A stretch of 64,000 nucleotides of DNA from an uncultured virus (IMG/VR IMGVR_UViG_3300031951_000103) (taxonomy: Duplodnaviria; Heunggongvirae; Uroviricota; Caudoviricetes). Of the stretch, positions 29,399-55,066 are shown piece after piece. The notes under the pieces were generated by a model. It had not been told where the DNA came from and ran no database searches. It was given only the letters and a program-made list of their open reading frames with translations. The position numbers and the translations under genes are program-made. The first letter of the stretch is position 1, and every line of letters starts with the position of its first letter. The stretch is from the IMG/VR virus record IMGVR_UViG_3300031951_000103, one strand, 5' to 3'.

Positions 29399-29411
29399 AA
29401 AGGGTTTTATA

Positions 29412-32531: not shown

Positions 32532-32538
32532 GATTTTT

Positions 32539-33960: not shown

Positions 33961-33989
33961 TAGCAAGATTTTTATAAGGAATAGTATTT

Positions 33990-35459: not shown

Positions 35460-35472
35460 GAGAATATAAAAT

Positions 35473-37815
35473 ATGGATATAGAATATAATAGTATTAATA
35501 ATCTTTGTTTTTCTGATTCTAATGGCATCATAGATATAACTGTTATTAATTTAACAGAACCAGAGTCTTTATTATTTGGATCATATACAATAGAGTGGTT
35601 TGGAGATTTAACTAATACCATACTATCACAGAATAAAAGAACATTAAGTAATTTAAAAAATGGTACATATAGTTTTAGATTAGTAAACCCAGATAATCCT
35701 AATGTTACTAGTAATTTAACTACAATTAATATTACATCGCCAAATCAATTATTTATAAAGAATATTTATTCGTCGCAATTTAGCTGTGGGAATAATGGGT
35801 TTATTCAAATATTTATTTCTGGAGGACAATCTCCGTATACATATAGCTTAAATGGAGTATCTAATACTATTTCAGCTAATAATTATACATTTGAAAACTT
35901 AAACCCAGGAATATATAACCTAAGTATTATAGACGCCAATGGTTGTTCTGTTAGCGCTAGTAATATTGAACTATTAGAGAGCATAGTAGAATTAAATATA
36001 GATCAAATAATTTCCCCAAAACAATTAAATGATATGGGAGGAATATCTTTTAGTATTACTGGTAGCGGTCCATTTGGTATGTCCTTTGAATCTCTCAATA
36101 GCCAAGACATAATTAATATAGATAAATTTGATACTACATATTTAAAATCTATTAATAATAGTACATATAATTATATAATTAATAATTTATATCCAGGAGA
36201 TTATAATTTAACCATAATTGATAAAAATAATTGTGTTAATAATTTTGAAATTAATATACCAAACATAGATCCTATAATAGTAAATATTAATGTTTCTACG
36301 GATACTACTCAAAATATACTCACTATTAATAATACTATACCAATATTTGATACTTTATTAATTCCATATAAATTTATAGTTAATGATACTAAAGAATGGC
36401 AAGCCATTAAAGAATATAATCTTAAAAACTATTTATCAATTTCTATTGATGGACAAATATATCAATTTCTTATTGCTAGAACAATGTTAAATAAATATTG
36501 TTTAGACAATAATAAAATAGAGGTTCTTAGATTAGGCAATACTGATAAAGACTGGTTTTTTTATCTACAGTTGGCTCCATCAATTAACTTGAATGATAAT
36601 CCTGAATTTATGAACTCTAAAATAGAACTTAAAACATCAGATTCTACTATTCCAATAACTTTAGGATTAAATGATCATCAACAATTAGATAATAATAATT
36701 TAAGTTTAATTAGAGGTAGTTTTATAGTATCAGGATTAGTAGATTCACAATTTAAAAATGGAGAAAAATGCTATATATCAACCAGTGATCAAATCTCTGA
36801 TATCAATCAATATAATTTTATGGTTAAAGACATTAAAATAGCTACACATAGAAATCTATACTCTGTTGGTCTTGTTACAATCATTAATTTCTTAGAGAAC
36901 TTCAAAACTTTAATATCAACAGTGAGCTTGCATCAAAATTTTTGCGATTTAAATATTTTAGATTATCAATACCTACTGAATATAAAAAATTTATTAATTA
37001 CATTAAATAATTTTAATAATAATAACAATATTTTTATATATAATATTAATGAACAGGGTAATGGTTCTATTGTATCTTCAATACGTAATCAAAATGAATT
37101 TTATTTTTTTAATGAGACAATACAAAATGAAGTTTATATCAACTACTCTTATTTTAAAGAGGATTCTGAAAAATTATCCAATTTATTTTTAAATAATAAA
37201 TTAGTTGAAAATATTTTATCTGTATCTAATATAAGAACAGGTTTTTATATAATTAAAATTAAAGATAAATTTAACAATAAACCATCTATAATAATTAATA
37301 ATAATAAAATTATAGAATATAGTATTCATAATACTGAAGCAAAACAATTTATACAAATATATAATCCTAAAATTATTTCCTTATTTGAAGATGGAGATAT
37401 TTTGGTATATGTTCCTCAAACTAATAGTGATCCTATTTTGAATAAATTGAATAACATACCAACTATAGCAAAAATTAGTATTAATAATTCTATTACGTTT
37501 ATACCACAAAGACAAACTAAAATTATTTCCCAAACTAATGACCCTAATAATAAATCCTCTTTAAATATTAAAATTAGTCCTAATTTAACGAAATGTATAA
37601 TTAATGGCCCAAATAATTATCTTTTAGAAATCGACACAGATACTAAATTAATCAATATGATTCCAGGTGTATATACTATAGTAGGAAACGAAGAAGATTT
37701 ACTAGCTAAAAATCTAGAACAAAACTATAATAGGATATTAGTGGATAAAAATAGCGAAACTAATGTTATTATTAAGTTTGAATCTTATAAAGATAAAATA
37801 TTAATTAAGGAATAA
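35473..37815 (+). CDS. SprB-repeat/Ig-like domain virion protein
   Basis: C..NG.I.I.ISGGQSPYTYSLNG...FENLNPGIYNLSIIDANGC and two weaker copies match the SprB repeat pattern. Confidence 0.7.
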   Translation: MDIEYNSINNLCFSDSNGIIDITVINLTEPESLLFGSYTIEWFGDLTNTILSQNKRTLSNLKNGTYSFRLVNPDNPNVTSNLTTINITSPNQLFIKNIYSSQFSCGNNGFIQIFISGGQSPYTYSLNGVSNTISANNYTFENLNPGIYNLSIIDANGCSVSASNIELLESIVELNIDQIISPKQLNDMGGISFSITGSGPFGMSFESLNSQDIINIDKFDTTYLKSINNSTYNYIINNLYPGDYNLTIIDKNNCVNNFEINIPNIDPIIVNINVSTDTTQNILTINNTIPIFDTLLIPYKFIVNDTKEWQAIKEYNLKNYLSISIDGQIYQFLIARTMLNKYCLDNNKIEVLRLGNTDKDWFFYLQLAPSINLNDNPEFMNSKIELKTSDSTIPITLGLNDHQQLDNNNLSLIRGSFIVSGLVDSQFKNGEKCYISTSDQISDINQYNFMVKDIKIATHRNLYSVGLVTIINFLENFKTLISTVSLHQNFCDLNILDYQYLLNIKNLLITLNNFNNNNNIFIYNINEQGNGSIVSSIRNQNEFYFFNETIQNEVYINYSYFKEDSEKLSNLFLNNKLVENILSVSNIRTGFYIIKIKDKFNNKPSIIINNNKIIEYSIHNTEAKQFIQIYNPKIISLFEDGDILVYVPQTNSDPILNKLNNIPTIAKISINNSITFIPQRQTKIISQTNDPNNKSSLNIKISPNLTKCIINGPNNYLLEIDTDTKLINMIPGVYTIVGNEEDLLAKNLEQNYNRILVDKNSETNVIIKFESYKDKILIKE

Positions 37816-37816
37816 A

Positions 37817-40800
37817 ATGCCAACAAATTGCAGAACAGCATACGCAACTTTTAGTTTTAATTATGTGTACGGTGGGCAAGTATACACAGGTTCTGTAACA
37901 CTAAATGATTTTAATGTTAATTATGGAGTTGGTTCGAATAATTCCTCATTAGATATTTCTGTATTATATGGAGGATGTAATAATATTAGTGATATTCCGA
38001 CTACGGTGGCTAGCGTTGGAAGATTAGCCACATTTAATTGTAATAATTTTAGTTTTACTGGAATAGTTCACGAATCATCTTATAACGAGAGCGAAGGCGG
38101 ATTTATATTTAAATGCAAATTAATTGATGCAAATAAAATATTAGAAAATGTTACAATTTTATTAAAAGACTACTATTGTCCATTAGAAGCTCCTAATTTT
38201 ATTAATGTTGCAAATCTTATAGAGGGAGCATCAGCAATATGTCCCCCTGGTATGGATTCTCAGAACTGGCCTAGAACCGGGAATTGTGGTGTTTTTGGTA
38301 CTTCTGGTGTTGGAACAACAAGCCCAAATAATGGAGTATCATTACGTAAAATTTTTCAAGTTCTAAATGGTAGAACTATTTATACTACAGCTGGAGAACA
38401 AATAAGTTTAGATTTATCAGCACTAGTATCCGCCTTAGCGTCTGTTGAATATGCTTCTGTTAATAGTACAGATATGTCATTGATGCAACTAATAACAACA
38501 GCATGTGATTCTTTAGCTGCTGATTGTTATGTGCAATTAAATGGACCAATAGTTAGCGTACTGTTAATCCCCAGATCTTCACAACCTGTTTTTGGAATCA
38601 TACAAGGATTAATCGAAGAGGCTAGATCTACAGGAAGTTTAATCAGAAATGAGATAGGAGCACAAGAAATTTATGCAGAAAGCAATAAGGTAATTATTGG
38701 AGATAAGGTATCTTACCTGTCTGAGAAACTATTTAGGGGCGCATCAATGATGTTTGGTTATGATACTAATAATGAAATTATTAGAGCTGAACCAAAACGT
38801 AATTTTAAAGTAAAAATAAATACTACCCCATTAAAAGCAGCTATTGGATTTCCTCATGATATGTATGAGATTACAGAAGAAGAAATTATTTGCGCTGGAT
38901 CTCAACACTTATGGACAACTTGGGGTTGTAAACCAGGTAATGAAAAAAGTTTATCGCGAGCAGTATCAAAATTTTTAGGATTATATACGGATGGTAGTCG
39001 TGAATTGAAAGCTATTGTAGACGCATGGATTTTCTGCAATACAAAATTACCAACTGAAGAAGGATGGAAACAACAAGCAGATAATTTAATGGTTAATGTT
39101 GCTGGTGGTACTATGGATGAAAAAATTATTAAGCTAAGAATGGCTTATGATTGGTTTAGAAGAGAAATTATTGACCAGTATTATGGTAAAACATGGTTAA
39201 TACCAATGGGAGCAAGTAAAACATGTGCTTTTCCAACAGTGAGAACCAAAACTGTAAGAGGAGACACTGGCGAATTTCATTTAGCTGATGTTACATCTGA
39301 TTCTGGATATCCTAGTCCATCACAAATTAATAATATTAGAGGATTAATTCCATGGGTAGATACTAATTTATATGAAGCTTCTGATAATAAAATTAATGGA
39401 TTTGCAGATTCAAAAGAAAATAAAAAAGACACAATTAATATCACAGGAAAAGATATTCCATTGGTTTTTAGCCCAGATGCATTAGCGGCAGAATCTTCAA
39501 CATATTATGCTAAAAATCAAAGAATATATATAGGAATAAAAGCAGATACTGCTTATTATCAAAATCCAAAAACAAGAGGAGGAGAAATATTAATTACACT
39601 AGACTCTAAACTACCAATGATTCCTGATATTAATAATGGAGAATTATTAAATCATGGATTAGCAACAATGGCTATATTATTTGGTGCTGCTGCTTATAAT
39701 GCATTATCACCAAAAGGCAAAGATGGTTTTGCTGATTTAAGCACTATTAATATTAAAAATATAAATTTACCAACAGTATTATTTGATGATACAGATGGTT
39801 GTGTTATACCTTTTACTAGTAATATGTATGTTTATGGACCATGGACAGCAAGTAAAGGTACTATAGGCTCTACTAAAGTTGATATTATTAGCGATCTAAA
39901 TCCATGGAACTATGGTGGTTGGGATGCTATGTCTAATATTGGTACTCAATTAGCAAATATTGGACTTAGAGCAAGCAATGCTCAAGAGTCTGGTTCTTTT
40001 ACTTTAGCAGAACCGCCTGGCTATAATATAGATTATTTTATTAATTTTGGATTATTATTAGACTCTATTAATGTAAATTATAATTCTAATGGTGTTACAA
40101 CAGACTATTCATTCAAGACCTTTAGTGCTAAATTTGGACAATATGCGCAAGCATTATCAGAAAGAGTTAAACAAATTGTTCAAATTAGATCTAAATTAAT
40201 AGAAAACATTAGATCACAAAGAAGAAAAACATTAACATTAATTTATAATGTTAGAAGAGAGATTGCTGTTCGTAAACTAGGTAAATTTTTACCAGGAAAT
40301 ATGGGACAAAACAACACTCCTCCGCCTCCAGAACATCCAAGTCCTGGATTCTTATTAATAGGAGGATATACGGTTATTCCTTCTAAAATTTCTACAGGCG
40401 CAACAACAACATCACAATGTATCAATCCTAAGAAACAAAATCCAGAAAGAACCAAGGTTTGTAATCCATATAGCCCACCATTATCTGAGTCATCAGAAAA
40501 ATATAATAATACTATTATGTCATATCAAGTTGGATTAGAACCAAAATACGCAATATCTCATGGTGCTAAAGATGATAGGTGGTGGCTTACAGCAGTTATG
40601 TCATTAGATGGATTAATAAGTCCAGTATCCACTAAAGGTAGACACGATAAACTATCTAGATATTCTGTATCTTGGACTGGACTGACACTATCCAAACCCA
40701 GACCATCTATGCCACCAATTATGTTAACAGTAGGCACAACAGACGTAAATTCTAATCTACCAATAAATCAAACATATTTAAATCCAATTTTAACTAAAAA

Positions 40801-43792
40801 ATTATTAACACAATGGGATGATAGAAAAGGCAGCACATCAAAGGGATGTAATATACAATATTTATCCTTTGGAGATAGTGTTGGGAGCATGTCGTTATAT
40901 GATGAAAGAGAAAATCATGATGATTTAGGGTTTCAAGCTCTGAGGGGGCCTTTGGTGTTACAGGCTTGGGGGTATGATACACTGAATAAACCTATTCCAA
41001 ATGCTGTGGACGATCCAATAGACGCATCTTTGGGCAAATTTCAAAATTGTCAGACTAAAGATAAGTTTATGAGCAATTGGTTGCAAAACCCAATGACTTG
41101 GCCTGTTGGACCAATAGATTTACGTTTTGATAGAGATAGAGGCGTATGGGTCAGTCCTCCACAAGATAGAATTGTTATGGCTAGATTAATACAAGATCTT
41201 CCTGCTATGGGAAAAGCCAAAGCTATATTAATTAATCCAGAAGGAGATGGAATTACTTTTTATGGAGACTATAAATTTTATGGACCAAAAGGAGAAGACT
41301 TACCAGAAGATGTTACTGCGGCTAAAATTACAGTTTATGATTTTTTAAATGAGCCTTTATATATAGATGCAACTGTATATGCATACTATGATGATAATAA
41401 ATATATAATACTAAATCATGATAATCACCAACCCAAAAGTAAATATTTTAAACTTACAGGAACATTAGATCCTTGTGGAACAACATATGCTGATGAAGTT
41501 AAGCTGAAACAAATTGAATGCCCGGATTTTTTTGAGCCATGCAAAAGATTGACTAACGAAAACGTTTATGATATAGCAAATATTGTGAGAATTCATAACT
41601 TAGCAACTAAAAAAGATATAGATACTGCCGCTTTATCCGGAGAATACGTAGAAGCTGTATTAGATAGATATTATCCTAATAAAGATAATGATAGGGGTTT
41701 GCCATATTGGAAAATTTTAAGATTTATAGATTGTGAATGTGATAGTTCTAGCAGTAGTTCTAGTAGTAGCAGTAGTAGCTCTAGTAGTAGTTCTAGTAGT
41801 AGCAGTAGTTCTTCTAGTAGTAGTTCTAGTAGTAGCAGTAGTTCTTCTAGTAGTAGTTCTAGTAGTAGCAGTAGTAGCTCTAGTAGTAGTTCTAGTAGTA
41901 GCAGTAGTAGCTCTAGTAGTAGTTCTAGTAGTAGCAGTAGTAGCTCTAGTAGTAGTTCTAGTAGTAGCAGTAGTTCTTCTAGTAGTAGTTCTAGTAGTAG
42001 CAGTAGTTCTTCTAGTAGTAGTTCTAGTAGTAGCAGTAGTTCTTCTAGTAGTAGTTCTAGTAGTAGCAATAGTACTAGCAGTAGTAGCACTAGCACTAGT
42101 ACTAGCAGTAGTAGCTCTAGTAGTAGTTCTAGCACTAGCAGTAGTAGCTCTAGTAGTAGTTCTAGTAGTAGCTCTAGTAGTAGTTCTAGTAGTAGCAATA
42201 GTACTAGCAGTAGTAGCACTAGCACTAGTACTAGCAGTAGTAGCTCTAGTAGTAGTTCTAGCACTAGCAGTAGTAGTTCTAGTAGTAGCAATAGTACTAG
42301 CAGTAGTAGCACTAGTACTAGCAGTAGTAGCTCTAGTAGTAGTTCTAGCACTAGCAGTAGTAGCACTAGTACTAGCAGTAGTAGCACTAGCACTAGCAGT
42401 AGTAGCACTAGTACTAGCAGTAGTAGCACTAGCACTAGCAGTAGTAGCACTAGTACTAGCAGTAGTAGCACTAGTACTAGCAGTAGTAGCTCTAGTAGTA
42501 GTTCTAGTAGTAGTAGTAGCTCGTCTAGTACTGAAGAACAAGAAGTCTATACTATACAAGTTTTAACTAATGTAGAATTAACTGGTAATGGACTACAATT
42601 TGAAGCTACCAAAATACAAGTACTAGATCCTCCAGATTACTATGTAGCAGCAGTAATTCCAACAACCGACTGTGAAATAGCAAGCTCTAGTTATAGTAGC
42701 ATTAGTAGTAGTAGTAATAGTAGTAATAGTAGTAGCTCATCTAGCAGTACTAGTAGTGAAGAAATTATTGGCTATAGATATACTAATAGCGCTGGAGATG
42801 GTAATTGGTGCAATATTTCAAACTGGGTTGATGAAAATGGAACCCCAGCAACTAAATTACCAGGACCTAGTGATGATGTTATTGTAGAAGGAGACGTTAC
42901 TAATTCTAGTGGATGCACGGCACATGCTGATACTTTGACAATAAACGGGTCTTCGTTTAATGGAGTAACTATTTTTGTTAATGCTCTTTTAGCAAATAAT
43001 AGTATTATTGGCGCAGCAGCAGTTATTACAATTAATGGAGGAGGAGAGTCTGTTCTAAACAATACAAATAATTATGGAATAATAATCATTATTCCTCCTG
43101 GATATATCATACTATTGAATGGTTCAATTAATTTTGGAACTATCGACGGTAATATATCTAATAGTAGCAGTAGCGACTCTACAGATAGTTCAAACAACAC
43201 CAGTTCCAGTAGCACTACCAGTAATTCAAGTAGTAGTAGTACTAGTAGCAGTAGTAGCTCTAGTAGCAGTAGTAGTTCTTCTAGTAGTAGCTCTAGTAGT
43301 AGCTCTAGCACTAGCAGTAGTAGCTCTAGTAGTAGCTCTAGTACTAGCAGTAGTAGCTCTAGTAGTAGCTCTAGTACTAGCAGTAGTAGCTCTAGTAGTA
43401 GCTCTAGTACTAGCAGTAGTAGCTCTAGTAGTAGCTCTAGCAGCACCAGCAGCACTAGTAGTAGCTCTAGCAGCACCAGTAGTACTAGTAGTACTAGTAG
43501 TACTAGCAATAGTAGTAGTAGTGAAGAAGATATTGTTTTATTGGCAACTTGGCGAACAATATCTGGAACAGAGCTCTGTTATAGACAATTAGTGTTTCTT
43601 GGTCCTTCAGAAGCTTTGCAAGCTATATTTGGTAGTCCTTTTTCAAGAGATGGTGGACCTTTACAAGAATGTCCTCCAGAAGGCGCTTTTGCATATCCTA
43701 GTCTATATCGTCCATTAGCTTATTATCCTTTTTATGAGTTAGATTACGACAACCACCCTAATTGGCTTGAAGCTCCAGGAAATCCAGAATAA
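37817..43792 (+). CDS. large tail-tip/baseplate hub protein with serine-rich repeat tracts (1,991 aa)
   Basis: Hub-like N-terminus; three Ser/Thr tracts; W....NW.....P...DDV beta-helix motif. Confidence 0.7.
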   Translation: MPTNCRTAYATFSFNYVYGGQVYTGSVTLNDFNVNYGVGSNNSSLDISVLYGGCNNISDIPTTVASVGRLATFNCNNFSFTGIVHESSYNESEGGFIFKCKLIDANKILENVTILLKDYYCPLEAPNFINVANLIEGASAICPPGMDSQNWPRTGNCGVFGTSGVGTTSPNNGVSLRKIFQVLNGRTIYTTAGEQISLDLSALVSALASVEYASVNSTDMSLMQLITTACDSLAADCYVQLNGPIVSVLLIPRSSQPVFGIIQGLIEEARSTGSLIRNEIGAQEIYAESNKVIIGDKVSYLSEKLFRGASMMFGYDTNNEIIRAEPKRNFKVKINTTPLKAAIGFPHDMYEITEEEIICAGSQHLWTTWGCKPGNEKSLSRAVSKFLGLYTDGSRELKAIVDAWIFCNTKLPTEEGWKQQADNLMVNVAGGTMDEKIIKLRMAYDWFRREIIDQYYGKTWLIPMGASKTCAFPTVRTKTVRGDTGEFHLADVTSDSGYPSPSQINNIRGLIPWVDTNLYEASDNKINGFADSKENKKDTINITGKDIPLVFSPDALAAESSTYYAKNQRIYIGIKADTAYYQNPKTRGGEILITLDSKLPMIPDINNGELLNHGLATMAILFGAAAYNALSPKGKDGFADLSTINIKNINLPTVLFDDTDGCVIPFTSNMYVYGPWTASKGTIGSTKVDIISDLNPWNYGGWDAMSNIGTQLANIGLRASNAQESGSFTLAEPPGYNIDYFINFGLLLDSINVNYNSNGVTTDYSFKTFSAKFGQYAQALSERVKQIVQIRSKLIENIRSQRRKTLTLIYNVRREIAVRKLGKFLPGNMGQNNTPPPPEHPSPGFLLIGGYTVIPSKISTGATTTSQCINPKKQNPERTKVCNPYSPPLSESSEKYNNTIMSYQVGLEPKYAISHGAKDDRWWLTAVMSLDGLISPVSTKGRHDKLSRYSVSWTGLTLSKPRPSMPPIMLTVGTTDVNSNLPINQTYLNPILTKKLLTQWDDRKGSTSKGCNIQYLSFGDSVGSMSLYDERENHDDLGFQALRGPLVLQAWGYDTLNKPIPNAVDDPIDASLGKFQNCQTKDKFMSNWLQNPMTWPVGPIDLRFDRDRGVWVSPPQDRIVMARLIQDLPAMGKAKAILINPEGDGITFYGDYKFYGPKGEDLPEDVTAAKITVYDFLNEPLYIDATVYAYYDDNKYIILNHDNHQPKSKYFKLTGTLDPCGTTYADEVKLKQIECPDFFEPCKRLTNENVYDIANIVRIHNLATKKDIDTAALSGEYVEAVLDRYYPNKDNDRGLPYWKILRFIDCECDSSSSSSSSSSSSSSSSSSSSSSSSSSSSSSSSSSSSSSSSSSSSSSSSSSSSSSSSSSSSSSSSSSSSSSSSSSSSSSSSSSSSSSSSSSSSSSSSSSSSSSSSSSSSNSTSSSSTSTSTSSSSSSSSSSTSSSSSSSSSSSSSSSSSSSSNSTSSSSTSTSTSSSSSSSSSSTSSSSSSSSNSTSSSSTSTSSSSSSSSSSTSSSSTSTSSSSTSTSSSSTSTSSSSTSTSSSSTSTSSSSTSTSSSSSSSSSSSSSSSSSTEEQEVYTIQVLTNVELTGNGLQFEATKIQVLDPPDYYVAAVIPTTDCEIASSSYSSISSSSNSSNSSSSSSSTSSEEIIGYRYTNSAGDGNWCNISNWVDENGTPATKLPGPSDDVIVEGDVTNSSGCTAHADTLTINGSSFNGVTIFVNALLANNSIIGAAAVITINGGGESVLNNTNNYGIIIIIPPGYIILLNGSINFGTIDGNISNSSSSDSTDSSNNTSSSSTTSNSSSSSTSSSSSSSSSSSSSSSSSSSSSSTSSSSSSSSSSTSSSSSSSSSSTSSSSSSSSSSTSSSSSSSSSSSTSSTSSSSSSTSSTSSTSSTSNSSSSEEDIVLLATWRTISGTELCYRQLVFLGPSEALQAIFGSPFSRDGGPLQECPPEGAFAYPSLYRPLAYYPFYELDYDNHPNWLEAPGNPE
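41744..42532 (+). repeat. poly-Ser/Thr coding repeat (263 codons; first 108 all Ser; 33-nt unit)
   Basis: Unit TCT AGT AGT AGT TCT AGT AGT AGC AGT AGT (AGC/TCT), followed by ACT-containing variants. Confidence 0.95.
43157..43522 (+). repeat. second long Ser/Thr coding repeat (about 122 codons)
   Basis: AGT/AGC/TCT/ACT repeats. Confidence 0.95.
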
Positions 43793-43804
43793 AATATTTT
43801 TATA

Positions 43805-45103
43805 ATGATAAATATAAAACTTAATCGTAAATATACGCAAAATGATATTTGGGGAAAATATTTAATATATCATTTAAGTAATCATCCTGACATCAAAACA
43901 GAAATATTAAAAAATCCATTACCTATTTTAATAGGAGGTAGGCGTGGAATTAATAATTTAACACCATTTATATATAATGATGTAGTTTTTATTGTTGATG
44001 ATTGGGATCATGCTAGTCCTACATGCTATTTACTAAATAATCCAAATATTCCTAAATTTTATTTAAATAATAATGTATGTATATTAAAAATACAATATTG
44101 TCATAGTGAAATTAATAATTATGATAAAATCTATAAACAATGCAATATTAAAATATTACCATTCACTATGTTTTCTGAACACTCTTTTAAATTAGCAAAT
44201 TTTAAATATAATATTAACTATAATCATAAATATAATTATATTATTACAGGTAGACCATGGAGACATAGGCTTTCCTGGATAAGAAATGCTCAACAACTAG
44301 AATATGGATCAAATAATCTAAATACAAAATATAATTTTGATAATGATTCAATATCCCCAGATATAAGATTTTATGAAATGTTGAAAGAATCCCGTTGGGG
44401 ATTAATATTAAAAGGAAAAGGATGTGGAGGAAAAAATAGAAGAGAGGTTGAGTTTAGCTCATTAGGAATGCCACTAGCCCTTAATTATATTCCAAATTAT
44501 CCTTTTCACTTTGTCCCGAATAAAGATTTTTTACTTTTAGAATCTCCAGAAGATTTAATAAAATTAAAGGACATTGATCCAGAACCTTTTGCAAAAAGAT
44601 CAGAGTACATCTATTATGAGTATTTTTCTCCAGAATTTGGTATATACAATAGTTTTAAAAAAGCATATGAAGAATTCAAATATTATTCTATGCTAGACAA
44701 CACATTATCATCAGCAATAGACTATACTTCTATTGAAGAAGACTATAATATTATTGAAATAATTCCACATATAGGATATAATCTAGGATTATTAAATAAT
44801 GGAGACTATATTAGTCTTCAATACAAGAAGGGATCTTGGAAATCTTGGGGACGCAAAAAACGCAAACAGGTAAATCCTGACAACACCAATGGCAGAGGAG
44901 GCAACAGAGCAAGACTAGGAATTTTTTGTATTAATAATAATAGTAAAACCCTTATACAGATTATACCAGAATATACACATAAAAATCCATTTATTTTTAA
45001 TGTTCCAGAAAATAATATGAATCTATATATAGATATATGTGATCAAGAACATCTAGCTGAAGGCTCGGTGTCGTACTTTATTAAAGTTAATAAAAAAAGT
45101 TAG
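43805..45103 (+). CDS. GT-B glycosyltransferase (exostosin/CgeB-like) with C-terminal beta-sandwich domain
   Basis: FYEMLKESRWGLILKG.G...RREVE...LGMP nucleotide-sugar-binding motif. Confidence 0.65.
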   Translation: MINIKLNRKYTQNDIWGKYLIYHLSNHPDIKTEILKNPLPILIGGRRGINNLTPFIYNDVVFIVDDWDHASPTCYLLNNPNIPKFYLNNNVCILKIQYCHSEINNYDKIYKQCNIKILPFTMFSEHSFKLANFKYNINYNHKYNYIITGRPWRHRLSWIRNAQQLEYGSNNLNTKYNFDNDSISPDIRFYEMLKESRWGLILKGKGCGGKNRREVEFSSLGMPLALNYIPNYPFHFVPNKDFLLLESPEDLIKLKDIDPEPFAKRSEYIYYEYFSPEFGIYNSFKKAYEEFKYYSMLDNTLSSAIDYTSIEEDYNIIEIIPHIGYNLGLLNNGDYISLQYKKGSWKSWGRKKRKQVNPDNTNGRGGNRARLGIFCINNNSKTLIQIIPEYTHKNPFIFNVPENNMNLYIDICDQEHLAEGSVSYFIKVNKKS

Positions 45104-47268
45104 TTATAGTCTACTATTTTTCTAAAATCTATAATTAGAGAAGTATATGTTAATTTATTTTTTTTATTTCTTCTATCATATCTTGAGCTTCTTTTAATAA
45201 AACCATCTTCTATGTCCCATTCTTGAAAATGAAACTGACCATTTTCATCAAAATACTCCAATAAGTCACCCTCAAATCCATTTTCTTTAAATAGCTCTAG
45301 TAAAGTTACATAATTGTATAAGAATTTATGATCATGAGCAGAAGCTCCAGATCCCTCAACATCCACGCTTTTTATATAATCAGCACTTGGATGGTAACCA
45401 TCTGGCACAGCTATTCTAATAGATCCATCTTTATGCAGAAATTTTTTAAAATTATTTATAGTATTGATTCTATCTTTATCGTTCAAATGCTCAAAAACAT
45501 GTTCTGCTAATATTCTATTAATAGAATTATATTCTATATTATTTTTAATCCATGAATCTTCATTTGTTATATCTAATATGTCTTTATTTGTATTTATCCA
45601 ATTTCTATACTGTTTTCTTCCACATCCAACATGTAATTTTATCGCATTATTTTCTGGCTGTTTTATTTTAGCTATAGAATCTTTTATTTGTTCTGCTGTT
45701 CTTTTATTATATAAACCACACCGTCTTTTAAAATCATACCTAAGAGTTTTTTTATTAAGGGCCATAGCAATATACCATAAATATGTATCTTGACTAGGTA
45801 TGGGCAATCTTTCTCCTGCTAATTCAGCTGCTTGTTTTGTAAATTCAGTTGAGTGTAATTGCACAAAACTATTGGTTCTGTGATGATAATATCTATTTTT
45901 TATAATTTTTGAACTATCTATTATGTATTGAAAATTGAGATTTTTATTTATAGACCATTCATTAAGAGTATTTATCCAGGACCACGGTTTTGTATAGTTC
46001 CATTTATGGCCAACAATGTCAAATCCAGAAATATTTTTATTTAAAATTTCTCTACTGTCTACGGCATACGTATCACAATCTAACTTTAACCAATATTTCG
46101 TATTTACATTTTTTGCTGAACCAAATACAAAAGCACTCAACATTTTTTCTCTTTGGGAATCAGCATTATTCATTTCCCAAGGGATAAGTGTAATATTTTT
46201 ATAGTTTTTTATAAAATCTAGGCGTTCATCATTTTCTTTAAATCCATTAATAAATATTATTATTGGAAATTTTAATATATTTTTATATTTAATCCATGTT
46301 GGAAAAGTTAGTTTTAAGCATTCTACATATCTTGTATCACAAGCTGTTACAATTGTAGTATTTGTATAGTTAGGGTCATCGTTTTCATTATAATTATATT
46401 CTCTAGTATTATTTATAATTTTATTACATTCATTGACATATGACTCCATACCATATCTATTTTGTAAAAATTTATTAAGATTATAATCATGTTTTATATT
46501 GTCTATAATATTATCTATATTATTTTTTTCATTATGTAATAAATTAATAAATTCTTTTATCCATAACTCCGCCAAACTAAATTTTCTACAATGTTTTCGT
46601 CCATGATAATGTATAATCCTTTTGTCTTCTTGATTTTGGCCAAATTTAACACTAGTATTAAATTTTGAATCTAATATTTTAATATTATACTTAGGTAAAA
46701 GAATTTGACAAGCAATTTCATCTGGTATGTATAGTCTATTTGATTGTCCTATTCTTGCTATTTCTAGCCAATCTTTAAATATTCTAGAATTTTTCATAAA
46801 AGCATAAATTCCAGTATTAATCGCTGGACCATAAGATATTGCTTTAGATATGACTTCGTTGCCTAAATATTTTTCATAATTTTTAATACGACGAGATATG
46901 GTTTTTCCACTAGACAACCAGTTACTAAATTGAGTTACGCATAAATCATAATTTTGTATATCAATAAATAACTCATCAATATTACCAATAATTAATGTAT
47001 CAGCGTCTATAAAAATTGTTTCATCATAAGGAGATAATTGAGACACAATAATTTTTCTTACATAAGTATTATCTAATTTTTCAGAATCTAAGTTTATAAT
47101 AGAAATTTTATATTTTTCTAAAAACCAATTTATCTGATTATAGTTATAATTTTCCATTAAAATAGTGATATTTCCATTATAAAATTTTCTTAAGCTTTGA
47201 ATAGATACCATAAGTCGTATAACACAACCCTGTCCTCTATTGTAATAAATAATGCCTTGAGTAGTCAT
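45100..47268 (-). CDS. fusion of GT8-like glycosyltransferase, second GT-A domain and SAM-dependent methyltransferase
   Basis: TIFIDADT (DxD), INTG, DE, HYHG; WLKLDCDT; LHVGCG...EHVFEHL...L..DG.IRIAVPD. Confidence 0.8.
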   Translation of the reverse strand: MTTQGIIYYNRGQGCVIRLMVSIQSLRKFYNGNITILMENYNYNQINWFLEKYKISIINLDSEKLDNTYVRKIIVSQLSPYDETIFIDADTLIIGNIDELFIDIQNYDLCVTQFSNWLSSGKTISRRIKNYEKYLGNEVISKAISYGPAINTGIYAFMKNSRIFKDWLEIARIGQSNRLYIPDEIACQILLPKYNIKILDSKFNTSVKFGQNQEDKRIIHYHGRKHCRKFSLAELWIKEFINLLHNEKNNIDNIIDNIKHDYNLNKFLQNRYGMESYVNECNKIINNTREYNYNENDDPNYTNTTIVTACDTRYVECLKLTFPTWIKYKNILKFPIIIFINGFKENDERLDFIKNYKNITLIPWEMNNADSQREKMLSAFVFGSAKNVNTKYWLKLDCDTYAVDSREILNKNISGFDIVGHKWNYTKPWSWINTLNEWSINKNLNFQYIIDSSKIIKNRYYHHRTNSFVQLHSTEFTKQAAELAGERLPIPSQDTYLWYIAMALNKKTLRYDFKRRCGLYNKRTAEQIKDSIAKIKQPENNAIKLHVGCGRKQYRNWINTNKDILDITNEDSWIKNNIEYNSINRILAEHVFEHLNDKDRINTINNFKKFLHKDGSIRIAVPDGYHPSADYIKSVDVEGSGASAHDHKFLYNYVTLLELFKENGFEGDLLEYFDENGQFHFQEWDIEDGFIKRSSRYDRRNKKNKLTYTSLIIDFRKIVDYN

Positions 47269-47609
47269 ATTATACTCCCAGTATCTTCTCTTACTATATC
47301 ATGCTCGTCTATAGACACATAATATATTTCTATGGCTGAAGTATTTTCTTTGGCTGTAAATCTATGATAGACGCCTGACTTAATTTCTGTCATTTGTTCA
47401 TTTTCTAAAATCGTAATATCAACCAAGCCATTAGATTTCCATTCTTCTATCTCAAGTCTACCGTTTTGCACAAAAAAAATATTGTTTTTATGTTTGTGCA
47501 TATGCTTTGAGCATCTGCCTCCCTTTTTGATATAAATTTGATTAATTTGTATATTATCATTCTTAAAAAGAAGCATATTTTCGCCCCAAATCTTACCCTC
47601 TTTAATCAT
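47265..47609 (-). CDS. cupin (mannose-6-phosphate isomerase-like)
   Basis: KIWG...CSKHMHKHK.N.F.V..G...G.YHRF cupin motifs. Confidence 0.8.
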   Translation of the reverse strand: MIKEGKIWGENMLLFKNDNIQINQIYIKKGGRCSKHMHKHKNNIFFVQNGRLEIEEWKSNGLVDITILENEQMTEIKSGVYHRFTAKENTSAIEIYYVSIDEHDIVREDTGSII

Positions 47610-48520
47610 CTTCCCCTCTGTGCTAATCTAGTTGCCTTTGCATTTTCTTTATTAATTTTTTGTTTAATTTTAGCTTCTCTGTCGTATAGTCCTTCTGCTT
47701 TTTCATTTTTAATATCAACACCAAATTTAGAATAAATACTTAAGATGGCTGTGTCAAAATCTATAAATTCAAAACTTTTAAGTTCAGATTGTTTATTACA
47801 ATTAAAAATCTTTAGACCGGCTTGTGAGAATATTGGGTTTAACTGATTGAATCTATCTATCATTCTTTGATATGTTTTAGTATTATTTTTAATAGCTTGT
47901 TTGGATCTATCTTGTTTGAAATGATACTTATGATTTTCATCCATTTTAAAATCACACCCCAATAGATAAATTTCTCTAATACCAAGATAATATAAGAGCT
48001 TAATACCTATTAACATTACAGACCTACCGCCGCCATAATCTTTATGATCACCCCAATTAAAGGTCGGTTCTGTTAAAAATGTACTAGCATTAAATCTATC
48101 GTTTCTTTCTATACCAAAAACATTTGCACATGTAGATACCGGAACATTAGTTTCTTGCCATGAAATATTATCAAAAATATTTTTATTCATATTTTCATAT
48201 GGAATAAATTTTTGTATTTTTGGATCTAGCCAAATTGATTTCATAAATCTGCTAGGATCATCAACAGATGTCCATAGATTTGGCCTAAAGCTTTTAACAG
48301 AATTGTTAACTCCCATAGTTAAAAAACCAGGATATTTTAAAGCGTCTTTATACCAAAACTCTTTGCTTCCAAGATTAATTTTTTCTTTAGAATCTAATAT
48401 TTGTTTAAAACTCGGTCCGCTTAATATTAAAAAAGCAGACGAATTTTTATAAATATTTTTTAAACTTATCCTGTTGTTATCTGTTGTAAAAATAGATATT
48501 TCTTTATGAAGTTGATTCAT
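47606..48520 (-). CDS. Maf/DUF115/CST-like glycosyltransferase-fold protein
   Basis: AFLILSGPSF, GVN, D, S....L.YYLG..EIYLLGCDF, IFNCN motifs. Confidence 0.65.
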   Translation of the reverse strand: MNQLHKEISIFTTDNNRISLKNIYKNSSAFLILSGPSFKQILDSKEKINLGSKEFWYKDALKYPGFLTMGVNNSVKSFRPNLWTSVDDPSRFMKSIWLDPKIQKFIPYENMNKNIFDNISWQETNVPVSTCANVFGIERNDRFNASTFLTEPTFNWGDHKDYGGGRSVMLIGIKLLYYLGIREIYLLGCDFKMDENHKYHFKQDRSKQAIKNNTKTYQRMIDRFNQLNPIFSQAGLKIFNCNKQSELKSFEFIDFDTAILSIYSKFGVDIKNEKAEGLYDREAKIKQKINKENAKATRLAQRGR

Positions 48521-48531
48521 AGAACTAGAAA

Positions 48532-48861: not shown

Positions 48862-48866
48862 AATTA

Positions 48867-50381: not shown

Positions 50382-50749
50382 ATTTCACCTATTTGTGTTA
50401 AACTATTTATAGTAGTTACTCCTGGTATTGAGTGGTTATTAAATAATATATAGTATCTATTATTTGGAAATGTATCAATTAGCCAGTCATCATTCGCATT
50501 TTCTAATATAACATGATGAAATTTATTAGCTAAATATAAGGTATGAAATACTGGTATATAAATATTATCTTTTAAGTACGAAGATTCGGTATAGCAAGCA
50601 TAGGTATATTTATATGGGTCATTTTTAACCAAAGAGATTAATTCTATAAATCTATTATCTTTATAGATATTATCGTTTAATATATTAAAAAATAACGATA
50701 TATCGATATTATTATTATTATTATTATTTGTAAAATTTTGTAATTGCAT
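50378..50749 (-). CDS. hypothetical protein
   Basis: ORF track, overlapping operon packing. Confidence 0.55.
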   Translation of the reverse strand: MQLQNFTNNNNNNNIDISLFFNILNDNIYKDNRFIELISLVKNDPYKYTYACYTESSYLKDNIYIPVFHTLYLANKFHHVILENANDDWLIDTFPNNRYYILFNNHSIPGVTTINSLTQIGEI

Positions 50750-51389
50750 TTCTTTGTCTCATATTGTTAAAATAAATAAAGTTATTACTATTGATATTAG
50801 ATATTTTAAATACTTCATTAGCAGATACTAACATATTTATGATTTCAAAATATAATAAATTTTTGATACTATATTTAGTATCAGAAAGAATTTTATTAGT
50901 ACTATATTCATTAATATAAAAAATATTACAAAACTTATTATTTGGTAAATCAAAAAACATATTAATAAGGTTAGATGATTGGTCTGAGATACATCCCACA
51001 TCAATAGCACTATCTTTAGTGCTATGTAAACATAAAATCGAAGAATTATCGAATTTTATAGCGGATAATGTTTTTTCATTAAAAATGCAACCATAATCTA
51101 TAAATACTATATTTTTATATTTAGCTTTTAAGCACCCAGTGTATATCGGATTATGTTCTAAACAATTAACAACTTTAATCTTATGAAAGTTTTTTTGTAT
51201 TTTTATTGTATTAAAAGAACTAATAACTATTATTTCATAACTAGTATTTTTCTTATTAAAATTATGGATAGCTTTGATCTGATGATCTAATAATTTTTGA
51301 TTATTAAACATCATTAAAGACTTGGGTCCACGAGACTTCATGCCCTTATCCGTATAACAAGCTAATATTATATAAGAAATATTATTCAT
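50724..51389 (-). CDS. nucleotidyltransferase (NTP_transferase)-like protein, degenerate
   Basis: IILA....GMKSRGPKSL....LLDHQI. Confidence 0.6.
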   Translation of the reverse strand: MNNISYIILACYTDKGMKSRGPKSLMMFNNQKLLDHQIKAIHNFNKKNTSYEIIVISSFNTIKIQKNFHKIKVVNCLEHNPIYTGCLKAKYKNIVFIDYGCIFNEKTLSAIKFDNSSILCLHSTKDSAIDVGCISDQSSNLINMFFDLPNNKFCNIFYINEYSTNKILSDTKYSIKNLLYFEIINMLVSANEVFKISNINSNNFIYFNNMRQRNAITKFYK

Positions 51390-51822: not shown

Positions 51823-52294
51823 TGTATGTATTATTAATAATAAATGGACTAGAACATAATTCTAAAATGTATGATCGCCATTGATCTATACTTTTTTTAT
51901 TATAGATGTCAAATTTTATTATGGCACTATATTTCTTAAGCAAAATTTTATTTAATGTGCTTGATAAAGAGACCACTGGAGATGGCTGAAAATAAATATC
52001 TACATCTAAAGTTTTATAATCATCAGCTTTATCAAAGATTAATAATAATGGTATATGAAAATATTTACATAATTCTACGCTCTTAATAAGAGTCTCTTCT
52101 GTCATATCCATAGTAATAATAATATGCGGATTATTTATTCCATAAAAAGTATCATCAAAATTAACAAAACTAACCACAGGAAATAAATTGTATACAAATG
52201 CGTTGAATTCGTGGTCTTTGTCTTTTGGTATATATAAAATATTTATCCTATTCTCTATAGTTAGAGACTCTTTTTGTATAATATTTTGTATCAT
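51803..52294 (-). CDS. hypothetical protein (possibly a degenerate GT domain)
   Basis: ORF track, operon packing within the GT cluster. Confidence 0.5.
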   Translation of the reverse strand: MIQNIIQKESLTIENRINILYIPKDKDHEFNAFVYNLFPVVSFVNFDDTFYGINNPHIIITMDMTEETLIKSVELCKYFHIPLLLIFDKADDYKTLDVDIYFQPSPVVSLSSTLNKILLKKYSAIIKFDIYNKKSIDQWRSYILELCSSPFIINNTYNEYHDK

Positions 52295-53394
52295 AATATT
52301 TTAAATTGTTCCGAAACTTTTTGCAAAGTAAACTGTTTTATTTGTTCTGTTTGGTTTTTTATTCTTTGTTTTTTTGATGCCTTAGATTCATTAATAGCTA
52401 AAAACATTTTTTCAACAATATCATCTATTTTGGGTTCGTACCATTTTTGATATACAGAATTATATATAGGGAAAATTCTATTTTTATCTTTACATGGCAC
52501 AAGATCGCTTGCAATTTTTAATCCGCAAGCATTATTTATAATATCGTCAAATCCTGTATTTTCTGTTGTTATAATTTGATTATTAAATGCCATAGCTTCT
52601 AGTGCTGAATATCCAAAACTTTCACCATATGATGTATTTATATAACAATCATTATTATTATGTAAATATAGTATATTTTTATAATCAGTATTTCCTATAT
52701 ATAACTTTGGCTTTTTAACAAAATTTTTTCTTACAGTTGTATAAATTTTTTCAAATTCATACTCTATATACTCTTGCATATTAGCAACGTTATCTATATG
52801 TCTAAGTTTTATAGATAAATCTATATCAGAATAATGATTTGAACATATTAGAAAAGCCATCAATAATGAATTTAAATTTTTTCTATCTTCAAAACTAGTA
52901 ATAGCATAAAACTTGTAATTATAATCTGTAATTTCTATAGGATTATTATTTCTATAATTTATTATATAATCAAGATCAATTGGTTCTGGTACAATAGAAA
53001 TTTTTGATTTAATATCTAATTCATTTAAAGCAAGTTTGACAAATCTAGATCCGACAATAATTTTATCCATAATATTTAGATGGTCTTTTAGCATATTAGT
53101 ATTATTAATGGATTCTAGATGAATTAATCCTATATTTTCATCAAATCTACTATCAAATACCAGCTGATGTGGATAGCAATGCTGTATAATTTTATGATAA
53201 TGTTTACTATGATTTTTCTCTAATTCTAAAATCGAACTATCTATAGATTCTGGTGGGTATGAAACATAATAATTATACGATGGTCTAATAGATATATTAT
53301 GACCAGAAAGAGCTAGTGCTCTAATATATTGTCTGGATGCGTTACCCATACCAGAAAATTCTCTATATGGGCCTATATATAGTATATTATCCAT
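52291..53394 (-). CDS. GT4-family glycosyltransferase
   Basis: SG.G.A...Y, RKNL..L, DCY...S.GESFG..ALEAMA. Confidence 0.85.
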   Translation of the reverse strand: MDNILYIGPYREFSGMGNASRQYIRALALSGHNISIRPSYNYYVSYPPESIDSSILELEKNHSKHYHKIIQHCYPHQLVFDSRFDENIGLIHLESINNTNMLKDHLNIMDKIIVGSRFVKLALNELDIKSKISIVPEPIDLDYIINYRNNNPIEITDYNYKFYAITSFEDRKNLNSLLMAFLICSNHYSDIDLSIKLRHIDNVANMQEYIEYEFEKIYTTVRKNFVKKPKLYIGNTDYKNILYLHNNNDCYINTSYGESFGYSALEAMAFNNQIITTENTGFDDIINNACGLKIASDLVPCKDKNRIFPIYNSVYQKWYEPKIDDIVEKMFLAINESKASKKQRIKNQTEQIKQFTLQKVSEQFKIL

Positions 53395-53400
53395 ATTATA

Positions 53401-55008
53401 TTATTTATTCAAAAAAATATCATTTATTGAGATTTCGCCAGACCTTACTTTTTCACAATATATTTTGTTATTCAGCAATGTCTCTAGAACCCTAACAAAA
53501 TCTTGTCGTTGTGTTTGAGATACTCCAGTATTTGATGTTATAAAATTTTCGTCTAAAGATTTAATAATTGATTGAATATAGTGAGTACGATTTAACTGTG
53601 GTTCTTTTAATAGATTATTGACTATAAAATATACAAAAGCTCTATTGTTAGATATTGTGGGAACAGACAAGTCTGGATTTGTTAATAATGGCTTGTTCCA
53701 CATATTTTTTGGCTCTAAGCTATTAAAAACTTTTGTCCATACTGCTGCTGTTTTATCCCAACTATAATTATCTAATAATAATTTTCTAGTATTTTTTGAA
53801 ATCTGTTTTTTTTCTTGCGTCGGCTTATTAAGCCAATCAATAACTTTATCTATTAAATCATCATTGTCTGGAACAGCTCTATCAGCACCAGTTTCAAGTT
53901 CTTTAGATAAGAGACACTTAATTTTAGTCCCACCCAGCAAAGATGTCAATTCTTCCATACCACTATAATTTACGGCAAATAATGGAATTCCACAAGATGC
54001 AGCTTCTAATTGTGGTATTCCAAGACCTTCACATATTGCATATTGTACATATATATCGAATATATTGTATATATCACATAGTTGAGAATTAGACACTCCA
54101 TTAGAAACATTAGGGAAGAACGCATATTGATTGGGATTAAAAATACAATTTATTCTAGCTCCCTTATATAGTGACGGAAAAATTACTTTAGATGTAGGAT
54201 TATAATAGGTAAATAGAACATTATTATAAACGCCGTATTCCTGTAATAATTCTGGTATATTCCATCCAGCGTTTTCTGGATACGAAGTGTGTAAGTATAG
54301 AAAAACTTGATGATTTTTAATTTTTTTGATTAAGGATTTGAGACTACGAAATAATTCAGCAATAAGTTTTCTTTTTTGGTTTCTCATTACAGAACCAATA
54401 ATAAAACTATCTCCAGGAATACCAAATTTTGCTTTATGATAATTTTTTGTCCATTGTATTGGCTTAAATTCTTCTGGATTTACAGAGTCGCTAACGCATG
54501 GACCAATATTAATTGGTCTATTTAAAGATTTTAAATAATTAGACGCCCATTCGGTATGTGTTAAAACTAAATCCGCATTCTCAAATGTTTTTAACCATTC
54601 TGGTTTTTGTGGGATACTGTCTATAGTTGGAGCAACTACCCAGTGATAATATGGTCTTAAACAAGACAATTCTTGATATGAAAACATCCAATAGTCACGA
54701 ATATCAAAAACAATATCTGGTTTAAAATGTAAAACTACTTTATCGAATCGCCATTGTCCAAAATGATTAATGGGATTACTATTATAAATTTTTAATTCAT
54801 CGCTATTATCATATGGAACATTAGGATAGACTTTCCATGGAACATCTCGAATATAATCGTCTTTTAAATATGAGGCGAATTCTGCAATTTCATAATTTGG
54901 ATCTTTAGATAATCTAGACAGAATCTCATAGGTATATCTGCCAAATCCACTTTTTATGGTGTGTGATTCACCACACATTAAAATTCTTTTTTTTCTTTGT
55001 ATTTGCAT
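53401..55008 (-). CDS. GT4-family glycosyltransferase (start revised to ATG 55008)
   Basis: SGFG, RNQKRK, YN.FD.YV....EGLGIPQLEAASCGIP; the track's TTG start lies inside a terminator. Confidence 0.88.
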   Translation of the reverse strand: MQIQRKKRILMCGESHTIKSGFGRYTYEILSRLSKDPNYEIAEFASYLKDDYIRDVPWKVYPNVPYDNSDELKIYNSNPINHFGQWRFDKVVLHFKPDIVFDIRDYWMFSYQELSCLRPYYHWVVAPTIDSIPQKPEWLKTFENADLVLTHTEWASNYLKSLNRPINIGPCVSDSVNPEEFKPIQWTKNYHKAKFGIPGDSFIIGSVMRNQKRKLIAELFRSLKSLIKKIKNHQVFLYLHTSYPENAGWNIPELLQEYGVYNNVLFTYYNPTSKVIFPSLYKGARINCIFNPNQYAFFPNVSNGVSNSQLCDIYNIFDIYVQYAICEGLGIPQLEAASCGIPLFAVNYSGMEELTSLLGGTKIKCLLSKELETGADRAVPDNDDLIDKVIDWLNKPTQEKKQISKNTRKLLLDNYSWDKTAAVWTKVFNSLEPKNMWNKPLLTNPDLSVPTISNNRAFVYFIVNNLLKEPQLNRTHYIQSIIKSLDENFITSNTGVSQTQRQDFVRVLETLLNNKIYCEKVRSGEISINDIFLNK

Positions 55009-55017
55009 ATAATTAAT

Positions 55018-55039
55018 AAAAAAGGGGCGTTGCCGCCCC
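55018..55039 (-). terminator. intrinsic terminator after ssb
   Basis: GGGGCG-GCAA-CGCCCC followed by T6 on the minus strand. Confidence 0.9.
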
Positions 55040-55066
55040 AATTTTAATTTGAACTATTTTAATTCC

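Follow-up and report, generated by a model that had tools for sequence, protein, structure and literature searches.

Long serine tracts in a tail-module protein beside a glycosyltransferase cassette: a candidate virion glycosylation system of an uncultured phage

We analyzed a stretch of 64,000 nucleotides from an uncultured virus of the Caudoviricetes (IMG/VR record IMGVR_UViG_3300031951_000103), called the window below, in which a tail-module gene encoding long serine tracts is followed by a cassette of four genes for putative glycosyltransferases (GT) and other sugar-related enzymes that might modify these tracts. Genes are named by their first position and compared loci by our own labels (L, G and P numbers). 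Up to position 45103 the plus strand of the window carries the terminase, head and tape-measure genes, the tape measure gene at 19196 lying upstream of the tail gene at 37817, and beyond this point replication genes are found on the minus strand. Gene 43805 begins 13 nt past the tail stop on the tail strand and the genes 45100, 47265 and 47606 converge on it from the minus strand, an order and orientation already given by the original prediction for this locus. The features are as follows.

37817..43792, plus strand: tail-module protein of 1,991 aa, the last large gene of the tail module, with a putative tail-tip or hub role
41744..42532, plus strand: tract 1 (aa 1310-1572), 263 aa (S233 T27 N3), candidate glycan acceptor
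42533..42703, plus strand: module after tract 1, ending in T-D-C, with a similar module after the tract in relatives
42704..42757, plus strand: tract 2 (aa 1630-1647), 18 aa of Ser, Asn and Thr, followed by EEI
43187..43522, plus strand: tract 3 (aa 1791-1902), 112 aa (S94 T14 N4), followed by EED
43793..48531: variable site (swap site) bounded by the tail gene and by 48532, a conserved gene of convergent orientation
43805..45103, plus strand: GT-B-fold glycosyltransferase with a PllA-lectin-like beta-sandwich, 432 aa, by predicted structure
45100..47268, minus strand: fusion of a GT8-like GT-A domain, a second GT-A domain and a class I S-adenosylmethionine-dependent methyltransferase, 722 aa, by predicted structure
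47265..47609, minus strand: sugar-isomerase-like cupin, 114 aa (MannoseP_isomer, E 1.2e-5, above the cut-off)
47606..48520, minus strand: Maf/CstII/WaaZ-fold transferase-like protein, 304 aa, by fold and motif evidence

The tail-module protein consists of a conserved core (aa 1-1200) and a variable C-terminal part holding the three tracts, and its open reading frame (ORF) encodes 465 Ser and 156 Thr in total. Three points of the original prediction were found again, the length of 1,991 aa, the run of 108 Ser (41744-42067) and the E-E that closes each of the three tracts. Together the tracts comprise 393 Ser, Thr and Asn residues, of which 384 are Ser or Thr. The pure run opens tract 1 (aa 1310-1417) and would arise by chance with a probability of about 1e-122 at the 7.4% Ser of the core; the tract is preceded by C-E-C-D and followed by EEQ. 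As its Ser codons are mixed (AGT 138, AGC 55, TCT 39, TCG 1) within a repeat unit of 33 nt (23.5 copies, 80% matches), it does not reflect plain trinucleotide slippage. Minus-strand shadow ORFs over the tracts (41671-42566 and 43072-43509) were rejected as by-products of the repeat. The 32 homologues of the protein share the core at 30-54% identity and are 1,235-2,224 aa long; their Ser runs never exceed 11 residues, and at the equivalent position many of them have a short stretch of Thr, Thr-Pro, Thr-Glu or Ser flanked by cysteines. The likeness of the T-D-C module to those of relatives (P0001, P0013, P0015, L050, L125 and L153) was seen by eye, and a BLAST search with 42533..42703 found its own genome only. 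No family or structure match to 37817 was obtained in Pfam, PHROG or the PDB sequences, nor did its profile match the single sequence of the Mu hub protein gp44 (probability 0.1%). Its position at the end of the tail module and a peptidase M23 in a distant homologue suggest a tail-tip or hub protein. Ten other virion-module proteins of the window were checked and none has a tract (at most 11 Ser/Thr per 25 residues). In some relatives (L020, L021, L050, L059 and others) the tail protein seems to be split, the frame with the conserved C-terminal motifs measuring only about 720-1,040 aa.

None of the contigs compared with the window crosses a tract. Two contigs of IMG/VR, which may stem from the same sample, agree with 27817-41822 and 42207-55100 without a mismatch, and the 384 nt in between (41823-42206), which hold most of the pure-Ser run, are backed by the window's own assembly alone. 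The sequence of tract 3 is identical in L161, and in Logan contigs its 30-nt units occur in a different order. Repeat unitigs present about five times in the window reached 3.7 to 4 times the flank depth in two runs (X1 and X4), thus the tracts are real and approximately right in length. An assembly artefact was accordingly rejected as the source of their existence, though not for their exact length. In the closest relative the tract measures 22 residues in one record and at least 51, at the contig end, in another, showing that databases under-report long tracts; short-read assemblies break at them and such proteins are likely under-counted.

All four cassette enzymes are soluble, as no transmembrane stretch was found in any of them, and models and profiles support the enzyme calls of the original prediction at the fold level (GT-B, GT8 plus GT-A plus methyltransferase, cupin and Maf/CstII fold). 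By fold, 43805 appears to be closer to GT90/GT47 enzymes than to GT4 enzymes of the GtfA type. Its model (pLDDT 90.5) shows a GT90/GT47-like GT-B fold in aa 1-300, where structure comparison (VIA) gave a Z of 12.7 to POGLUT2 (root-mean-square deviation (rmsd) 4.7, 233 aligned), tied with 12.5 to EXTL3; GtfA and SdgB gave only generic GT-B matches (TM about 0.3, 10-12% identity), there is no Pfam match including GT4, and a sequence search against the PDB was empty. The C-terminal domain (aa 313-432, window 44740-45103) resembles the galactose-binding lectin PllA (VIA, Z 9.8, rmsd 2.9, 107 aligned) and is missing from about half of the 37 homologues. The fusion protein 45100 (pLDDT 92.4) is GT8-like in aa 1-260 (VIA, Z 19.4 to LgtC with rmsd 3.1 and 234 aligned, Z 18.4 to GlyE), followed by a GT-A domain in aa 295-538 (Z 15.0 to Kre2) and a methyltransferase in aa 541-720 (Z 12.5), and Foldseek ranked LARGE1 first. 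Its first domain combines the GT-A fold with the DxD motif (D88-A-D90) and conserved His of GT8; D88/D90, H220/H222 and D397/D399, which include both DxD motifs, are invariant over 101 rows. The Pfam scan gave Methyltransf_23 (E 1.2e-4) and no GT8 match. Homologues of the cupin accompany the cassette in L180, L184, L185, L186 and L189.

The Maf-like protein 47606 matches PF01973 (MptE-like) below the cut-off (E 2e-4, 21.6 bits against 34.6, aa 154-194), the sialyltransferase family phrog_4603 with E 6e-11 and MptE-like clusters of the Atlas with TM 0.59-0.63. A weak profile alignment to CstII (E 0.03) covers both CstII motifs, GPS and LGxDF, and over 67 rows of the family, which has 1,283 representatives at 50% identity, G35, S37, G188 and D190 are invariant and P36 is almost so. 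The acceptor cannot be read from a shared fold. Among the four enzymes 47606 is the best candidate for the priming step or for capping with an ulosonate.

In order to see whether such enzymes occur together with serine tracts we scored a tract as at least 17 Ser in a stop-free window mixing AGY and TCN codons, a threshold chosen because the tape measure gene gave a false positive of 13 Ser; TCN-only tracts such as that of G003 near 15.3 kb are missed by this score. A degenerate Ser/Thr pattern (21 records) was dropped as a test, as it also matched antisense shadows of acidic runs. Our set of viral loci with a member of the 47606 family excludes the own genome and comprises 100 entries, of which 79 stem from the best 80 of 190 and 21 from further searches; at 70% identity they fall into 40 clusters, one of them comprising 41 loci. 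A poly-Ser tract was present in 20 of the 40 clusters and in one of 80 random viral windows (Fisher p 8e-11; mean length 14 kb for the random windows and 19 kb for the Maf-like loci). The proportion was similar at other identities (29/56 at 90%, 16/31 at 60%) and exceeded that in the groups of tail-family loci (7/89, p 2e-7), and all 100 of 100 viral tracts lie on the strand of the Maf-like enzyme. The same was observed in bacteria. We took the best 80 of 205 bacterial loci, 67 of them with Verrucomicrobiota, Planctomycetota or Lentisphaerota in the title, and scored a tract in 35 of the 80 and in 13 of 40 clusters, compared to 0 of 40 control windows from two phyla of the Planctomycetes–Verrucomicrobia–Chlamydiae (PVC) group (p 8e-5), with 52 tracts on the strand of the Maf-like gene and 4 on the opposite one. 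Because Maf-like and GT-A genes adjoin poly-Ser genes in unrelated phages and in PVC bacteria far above controls, we consider it rather probable that enzymes of the phage attach O-glycans to the serine tracts of its tail protein.

The co-occurrence of poly-Ser and GT genes across phages, which had been named as a check of the original prediction, thus lends support to its idea of phage-encoded glycosylation, while the GT-B enzyme of the tail operon turned out to be the member least tied to tracts, making the Maf-like enzyme the better priming candidate. A GT8-like gene is tied to tracts as well (16/25 Maf-like clusters with the gene, 4/15 without it), and in many loci the Maf-like gene stands alone beside them. 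In L316 (1046-5320) a tract of 1,153 Ser directly precedes a Maf-GT fusion. Further observations concern the variety of these loci. In L316-L319 and L321 a single open frame encodes both a Maf-like and a GT8-like domain, and very long tracts are also present in L172 (13577-17494, 773 Ser), L317, L318 and L321. L176 (440-3547) encodes three adjacent small proteins, one of them a head-completion protein, with mostly C-terminal, tag-like poly-Ser, and L181 (15154-15939) a structural-looking protein with a poly-Ser stretch. In PVC bacteria poly-Ser near the Maf-like gene is part of RHS-repeat or similarly large proteins (L566:11653-18984, L594:13812-17837, L586, L579, L562). A conserved Phycisphaerales locus that is also filed as viral contigs (L340-L385, L602-L627) encodes, immediately behind the Maf-like gene, a Ser/Gly-rich protein in which Pfam weakly matches a Hint-like domain.

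To place the cassette within its own phage clade we grouped the best 80 of 267 viral and the best 80 of 248 metagenome loci of the tail family into 90 groups. Homologues of the genes 48532 and 48867 follow the tail gene in 57 of the 90, whereas the four cassette genes of the window are singletons there, from which the cassette and its tract appear to be accessory and swappable within the clade. In L189, a distant tail homologue (E 2e-27), the equivalent site holds poly-Ser, a CMP-sugar synthetase, the Maf-like gene, the cupin and both GT-A genes, and four groups with poly-Ser tails (L002, L082, L084 and L127) have contigs that stop inside the tract. Among 68 groups with a readable site, tracts of at least 100 residues were found in 11 of 16 with an accessory GT and in 4 of 52 without (p 3e-6). 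The latter four, and the short Ser/Thr/Pro/Glu tracts or lack of tracts in most tail relatives, would also fit the view that the tracts are unmodified linkers next to a recombination hot spot, into which GT genes were carried as passengers; this site beside the tail gene also takes up unrelated genes. Indeed, the available text of one study (PMC2699552) reports linkers of more than 80% Ser between folded modules of secreted carbohydrases from Teredinibacter, Saccharophagus and Cellvibrio, common in the enzymes of the first two and of unknown function. These are about 40 residues long compared to 263 and 112 here, and that part of the study describes no paired GT cassette. Since the pairing recurs in unrelated phages of other gene order and in bacterial RHS-protein loci, and tracts of 400-1,150 Ser adjoin Maf-GT fusions, we give the linker explanation little credit.

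The swap site holds a second type of cassette in other members of the clade. A GT60-like gene (PF11397, E 8e-71) is present in 13 groups, mostly together with HtrL, GT4 or methyltransferase genes, and 10 of the 13 have at least 100 residues of Ser/Thr/Pro tract, often as a Thr/Pro protein of 228-360 aa behind the tail gene. GT60, a family of polypeptide alpha-GlcNAc-transferases, is known from Trypanosoma cruzi, where TcOGNT makes GlcNAc-O-Thr on mucin-like proteins (PMC9472816), and the sister phages are similar to this system in having a PF11397 protein beside Thr/Pro-repeat proteins. The window itself has no PF11397, so that the GT60-like enzyme belongs to an alternative cassette. What is new here is that Maf-like and GT60-like cassettes alternate at one site in one clade. 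Moreover, the chemistry of the tract tracks the enzyme family: Ser dominates the tracts by Maf-like genes in 26 of 26 tract-bearing clusters (of 56 clusters at 90%; two of the tracts are antisense shadows), and Thr/Pro dominates those by GT60-like genes in 22 of 24 (of 29 clusters, which fall to 4 at 70% and are thus weakly independent). We also considered that the cassette remodels a host surface glycan (lipopolysaccharide (LPS) core, O antigen or Ser/Thr-rich surface proteins) against superinfection with the tract being an unrelated flexible linker. Variable phage GT clusters that include cupin isomerases are usually interpreted in terms of such remodelling (PMC7824862). This explanation predicts neither the match between tract chemistry and enzyme family nor the same-strand pairing with poly-Ser in phages and bacteria, and the cassette is without a membrane GT or flippase-like gene; surface remodelling is therefore unlikely in our view, even if the Maf-like family is also found in PVC bacterial genomes.

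As side observations from the GT60-type relatives, near-pure Thr/Pro/Ser-repeat proteins were seen with the cassette in L050:14384-15073, L059:14271-14960, L065:14083-14772, L071:14389-15075, L080:4214-4969, L129:8672-9484, L070:3428-4435, L143:16558-17640 and L153:4272-4961; they are stand-alone proteins of 228-360 aa, often with Cys at both ends. A small Cys-rich family (G-x-G-T-E-L ... C-x-C ... W-C) without a Pfam match occupies the variable site in 20 of the 90 groups (for example L005:7047-7511, L056, L065, L128 and L157) and also lies beside the cassette in the unrelated phage L185 (7639-8163). Sulfotransferase-family genes at the swap site of L056, L028 and L118 suggest sulfated glycans in some relatives.

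The swap site, and two sets of clade-wide genes just outside the coordinates of the original prediction, had escaped it. The latter are:

50724..51389, minus strand: nucleotidyltransferase-like gene in 45 of 90 groups (profile matches to LicC with E 5e-7 and, weaker, to IspD and GlmU)
52291..55041, minus strand: two GT4 genes of 367 and 546 aa, each in 30 of 90 groups (Glycos_transf_1, E 7.8e-10 and 1.2e-12)

From its profile matches the product of 50724..51389 may possibly take part in donor activation. The GT4 pair probably has another function than tract glycosylation, as it is also present in relatives without tracts. The clade-wide block 50724-55041 on the minus strand, found with or without tracts, also holds a small methyltransferase-like gene at 51382 (by eye) and an unknown gene. 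That the tract is glycosylated mainly by host enzymes or by the GT4 pair, the cassette decorating another virion protein or being dispensable, appears very unlikely: the pair is equally present in tract-free relatives and none of the ten other virion-module proteins offers a tract. On the other hand, the pair and the nucleotidyltransferase-like gene do occur in tract-bearing relatives without an accessory GT (L012, L005 and L032), and PVC bacteria bear the Maf-like family beside poly-Ser proteins of their own.

A last explanation to be weighed is that the cassette glycosylates and methylates a modified DNA base as a defence against nucleases. One report (10.1101/2023.12.21.572611) states that phage GTs can add sugar to 5-hydroxymethylcytosine and are sometimes encoded near structural genes; a deoxynucleoside monophosphate kinase is encoded in the window (Pfam), and more than half of the genome lies outside it. 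Unlike in DNA hypermodification clusters, the scanned genes of the window include no cytosine C5-methyltransferase, no 5mYOX/TET-like dioxygenase and no hydroxymethylase, nor are these found among the 150 of 154 neighbour clusters scanned at 28 Maf loci, which comprise sugar-nucleotide enzymes, GTs, methyltransferases and one Mom protein. An action of the GTs on DNA, which the original prediction had listed as counting against it, thus finds no support in either scan and is highly improbable.

Several observations weigh against glycosylation of the tracts by the phage. The virion location of 37817 is derived from gene order, three of the four cassette genes lie on the strand of the replication genes, as surface remodelling would also allow, and the GT8 and CstII/WaaZ folds include enzymes of LPS and lipooligosaccharide synthesis that act on sugars. 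Half of the viral Maf-like clusters (20/40) have no tract nearby, and where one exists it is not closer to the Maf-like gene than by chance (within 2.5 kb in 11/20, with 8.6 expected in 20-kb loci). The GT-B enzyme adds nothing, with tracts in 2 of 6 Maf-like clusters that have it and in 18 of 34 that do not. Of the four near-complete records without a tract at the Maf-like locus, G013, G014 and G020 encode poly-Ser proteins elsewhere, and G006 (88% complete) has no poly-Ser anywhere; the partial records G018 and G019 have none either. When viral sequences were searched for a poly-Ser pattern instead, 13 of 117 stretches had a scored tract and only one of 11 with flanks had the Maf-like family, and no Maf-like gene is seen in a record (42% complete) in which GT-A and GT-B genes adjoin that of a protein with 773 Ser; as unselected poly-Ser loci are mostly without the family, poly-Ser does not require the Maf-like cassette. 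The window and its two sister contigs yielded no CMP-sugar synthetase, and a three-sequence profile detected one in only 4 of the 100 viral Maf-like loci. Within the clade, the link between accessory GTs and long tracts comes down to five independent pairs on a FastTree tree (86 rows) and is not significant. Whole records contained the Maf-like family in one of 47 cases (46 clade, one control; a weak match), and none of nine near-complete clade records has the gene, though complete relatives have short poly-Ser tails. Poly-Ser relatives without these GTs, also named in advance as counter-evidence, therefore exist, which bears out this objection in part, but other GTs stand at their swap site. 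Finally, none of 50,697 GenBank phage records matches the tail core, 45100 or 47606.

If the phage does glycosylate its tracts, this would take place in the host cytoplasm before or during tail assembly. The Maf/CstII-fold enzyme 47606 would load Ser with an ulosonic acid, either Kdo or a nonulosonate, from a CMP-activated donor that comes mostly from the host; it is taken as the priming enzyme because in many loci a Maf-like protein is the sole partner of the tract and hence the minimal one of poly-Ser. Extension of the chain could then fall to the two GT-A domains of 45100, perhaps also to the GT-B enzyme 43805, and capping to the methyltransferase domain of 45100, with the cupin 47265 adjusting the donor sugar. 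It could also be possible that the Maf-like enzyme caps rather than primes. The glycosylated tracts might stiffen to a hydrated stalk that spaces or shields the C-terminal modules, about 65 nm long for tract 1 at a rise of 0.25 nm per residue, and such a stalk might serve as spacer or protease shield or for solubility or the tuning of host range. More tentatively, and with doubts on our side, the tail operon of aquatic phages might end in an interchangeable ‘glyco-stalk’ module, in which a low-complexity acceptor and a chemically matched initiating enzyme are swapped as units within one clade, namely poly-Ser with a Maf-like ulosonate transferase and Thr/Pro repeats with a GT60-like GlcNAc transferase. 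In the window the GT-A pair of 45100 would then be a LARGE-like alternating polymerase and the methyltransferase a chain terminator, so that hundreds of Ser with methyl-capped chains might form a capsule brush of tens of nm on the tail.

By analogy, the cassette would work like the Maf-flagellin and serine-rich repeat protein (SRRP) systems while belonging to neither, as it lacks the context by which they are recognized. Maf enzymes are described as transferring Neu5Ac or Kdo to Ser/Thr (10.1101/2020.06.03.131540), and D324 and E415 are named as catalytic residues of the Magnetospirillum enzyme. With Maf (PF01973; Magnetospirillum Maf, PDB 5MU5; GT42 CstII fold) 47606 shares the fold class, the CstII-type motifs and solubility, and CMP-sugar synthetases adjoin some of its homologues. 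It differs in falling below the Pfam cut-off at 304 aa, in the phage tail and replication genes around it, in its putative acceptor, a homopolymeric Ser tract, and in its partners, which are GT-A and methyltransferase domains; flagellin was not found among the scanned window proteins or the 150 neighbour representatives of 47606 homologues. The SRRP systems (Fap1, GspB and PsrP with GtfA/B and GlyE, and SdgA/B) also have a long Ser-rich acceptor region beside GTs, and the GT8 domain of 45100 resembles GlyE, as given above. The repeats of SRRP are Ser-X dipeptides, in contrast to the nearly pure Ser of the phage tract, their GtfA and GtfB are GT4 enzymes, while the fold of 43805 is closer to GT90/GT47, and no SecA2/SecY2 export or cell-wall anchor family appeared in a Pfam scan of the proteins from 29412 to 63940. 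Virion glycosylation has reportedly been described by Freeman et al. in 2023 for the mycobacteriophages Che8 and Rita. A further study (PMC11256854) states that GTs encoded by mycobacteriophages glycosylate their own particle. These are phage-encoded soluble GTs as well; the acceptor there is the major capsid protein, while here it would be a low-complexity stalk, modified by other enzyme families in an aquatic phage with a probably Gram-negative host.

Regarding the origin of the phage, half or more of the sampled words of the window are present in six public runs, four labelled freshwater and two fungus metagenome, one of which may be the source. The complete genome of this large tailed phage may measure about 150 kb, as a 40-kb sister contig of the same phage is rated 27% complete. 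From the homologues of the enzymes alone a PVC host might be guessed. The tail-family profile found no match in 401 genomes of each of two PVC phyla nor in four genomes carrying the 47606-type enzyme, and a single-protein scan of bacterial genomes gave no match. A promoter scan returned 130 promoter-like sites with 135 expected by chance, and no terminator was seen in the scan at the point of gene convergence. Immediately upstream of the tail gene a 780-aa SprB/Ig-repeat protein is encoded (35473-37815, GC 0.23), a 1,039-aa tail protein at 29412-32531 has a weak C-terminal match to the S74 chaperone, and at 55506-59835 on the minus strand DNA polymerase III alpha is divided into two genes with a separate exonuclease gene in between.

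No publication on poly-Ser phage proteins paired with GTs was found in the literature searched by title and abstract start, which covered few subscription papers. The system can be addressed without culturing the phage, as it consists of four soluble enzymes and a defined acceptor and an E. coli assay has already been used for Maf, and enzymes that load sugars densely on poly-Ser would be useful for mucin mimics. If the tracts are indeed glycan acceptors, the large uncharacterised Maf-like family would gain a substrate class, and self-glycosylation would be a widespread and swappable trait of environmental phages.

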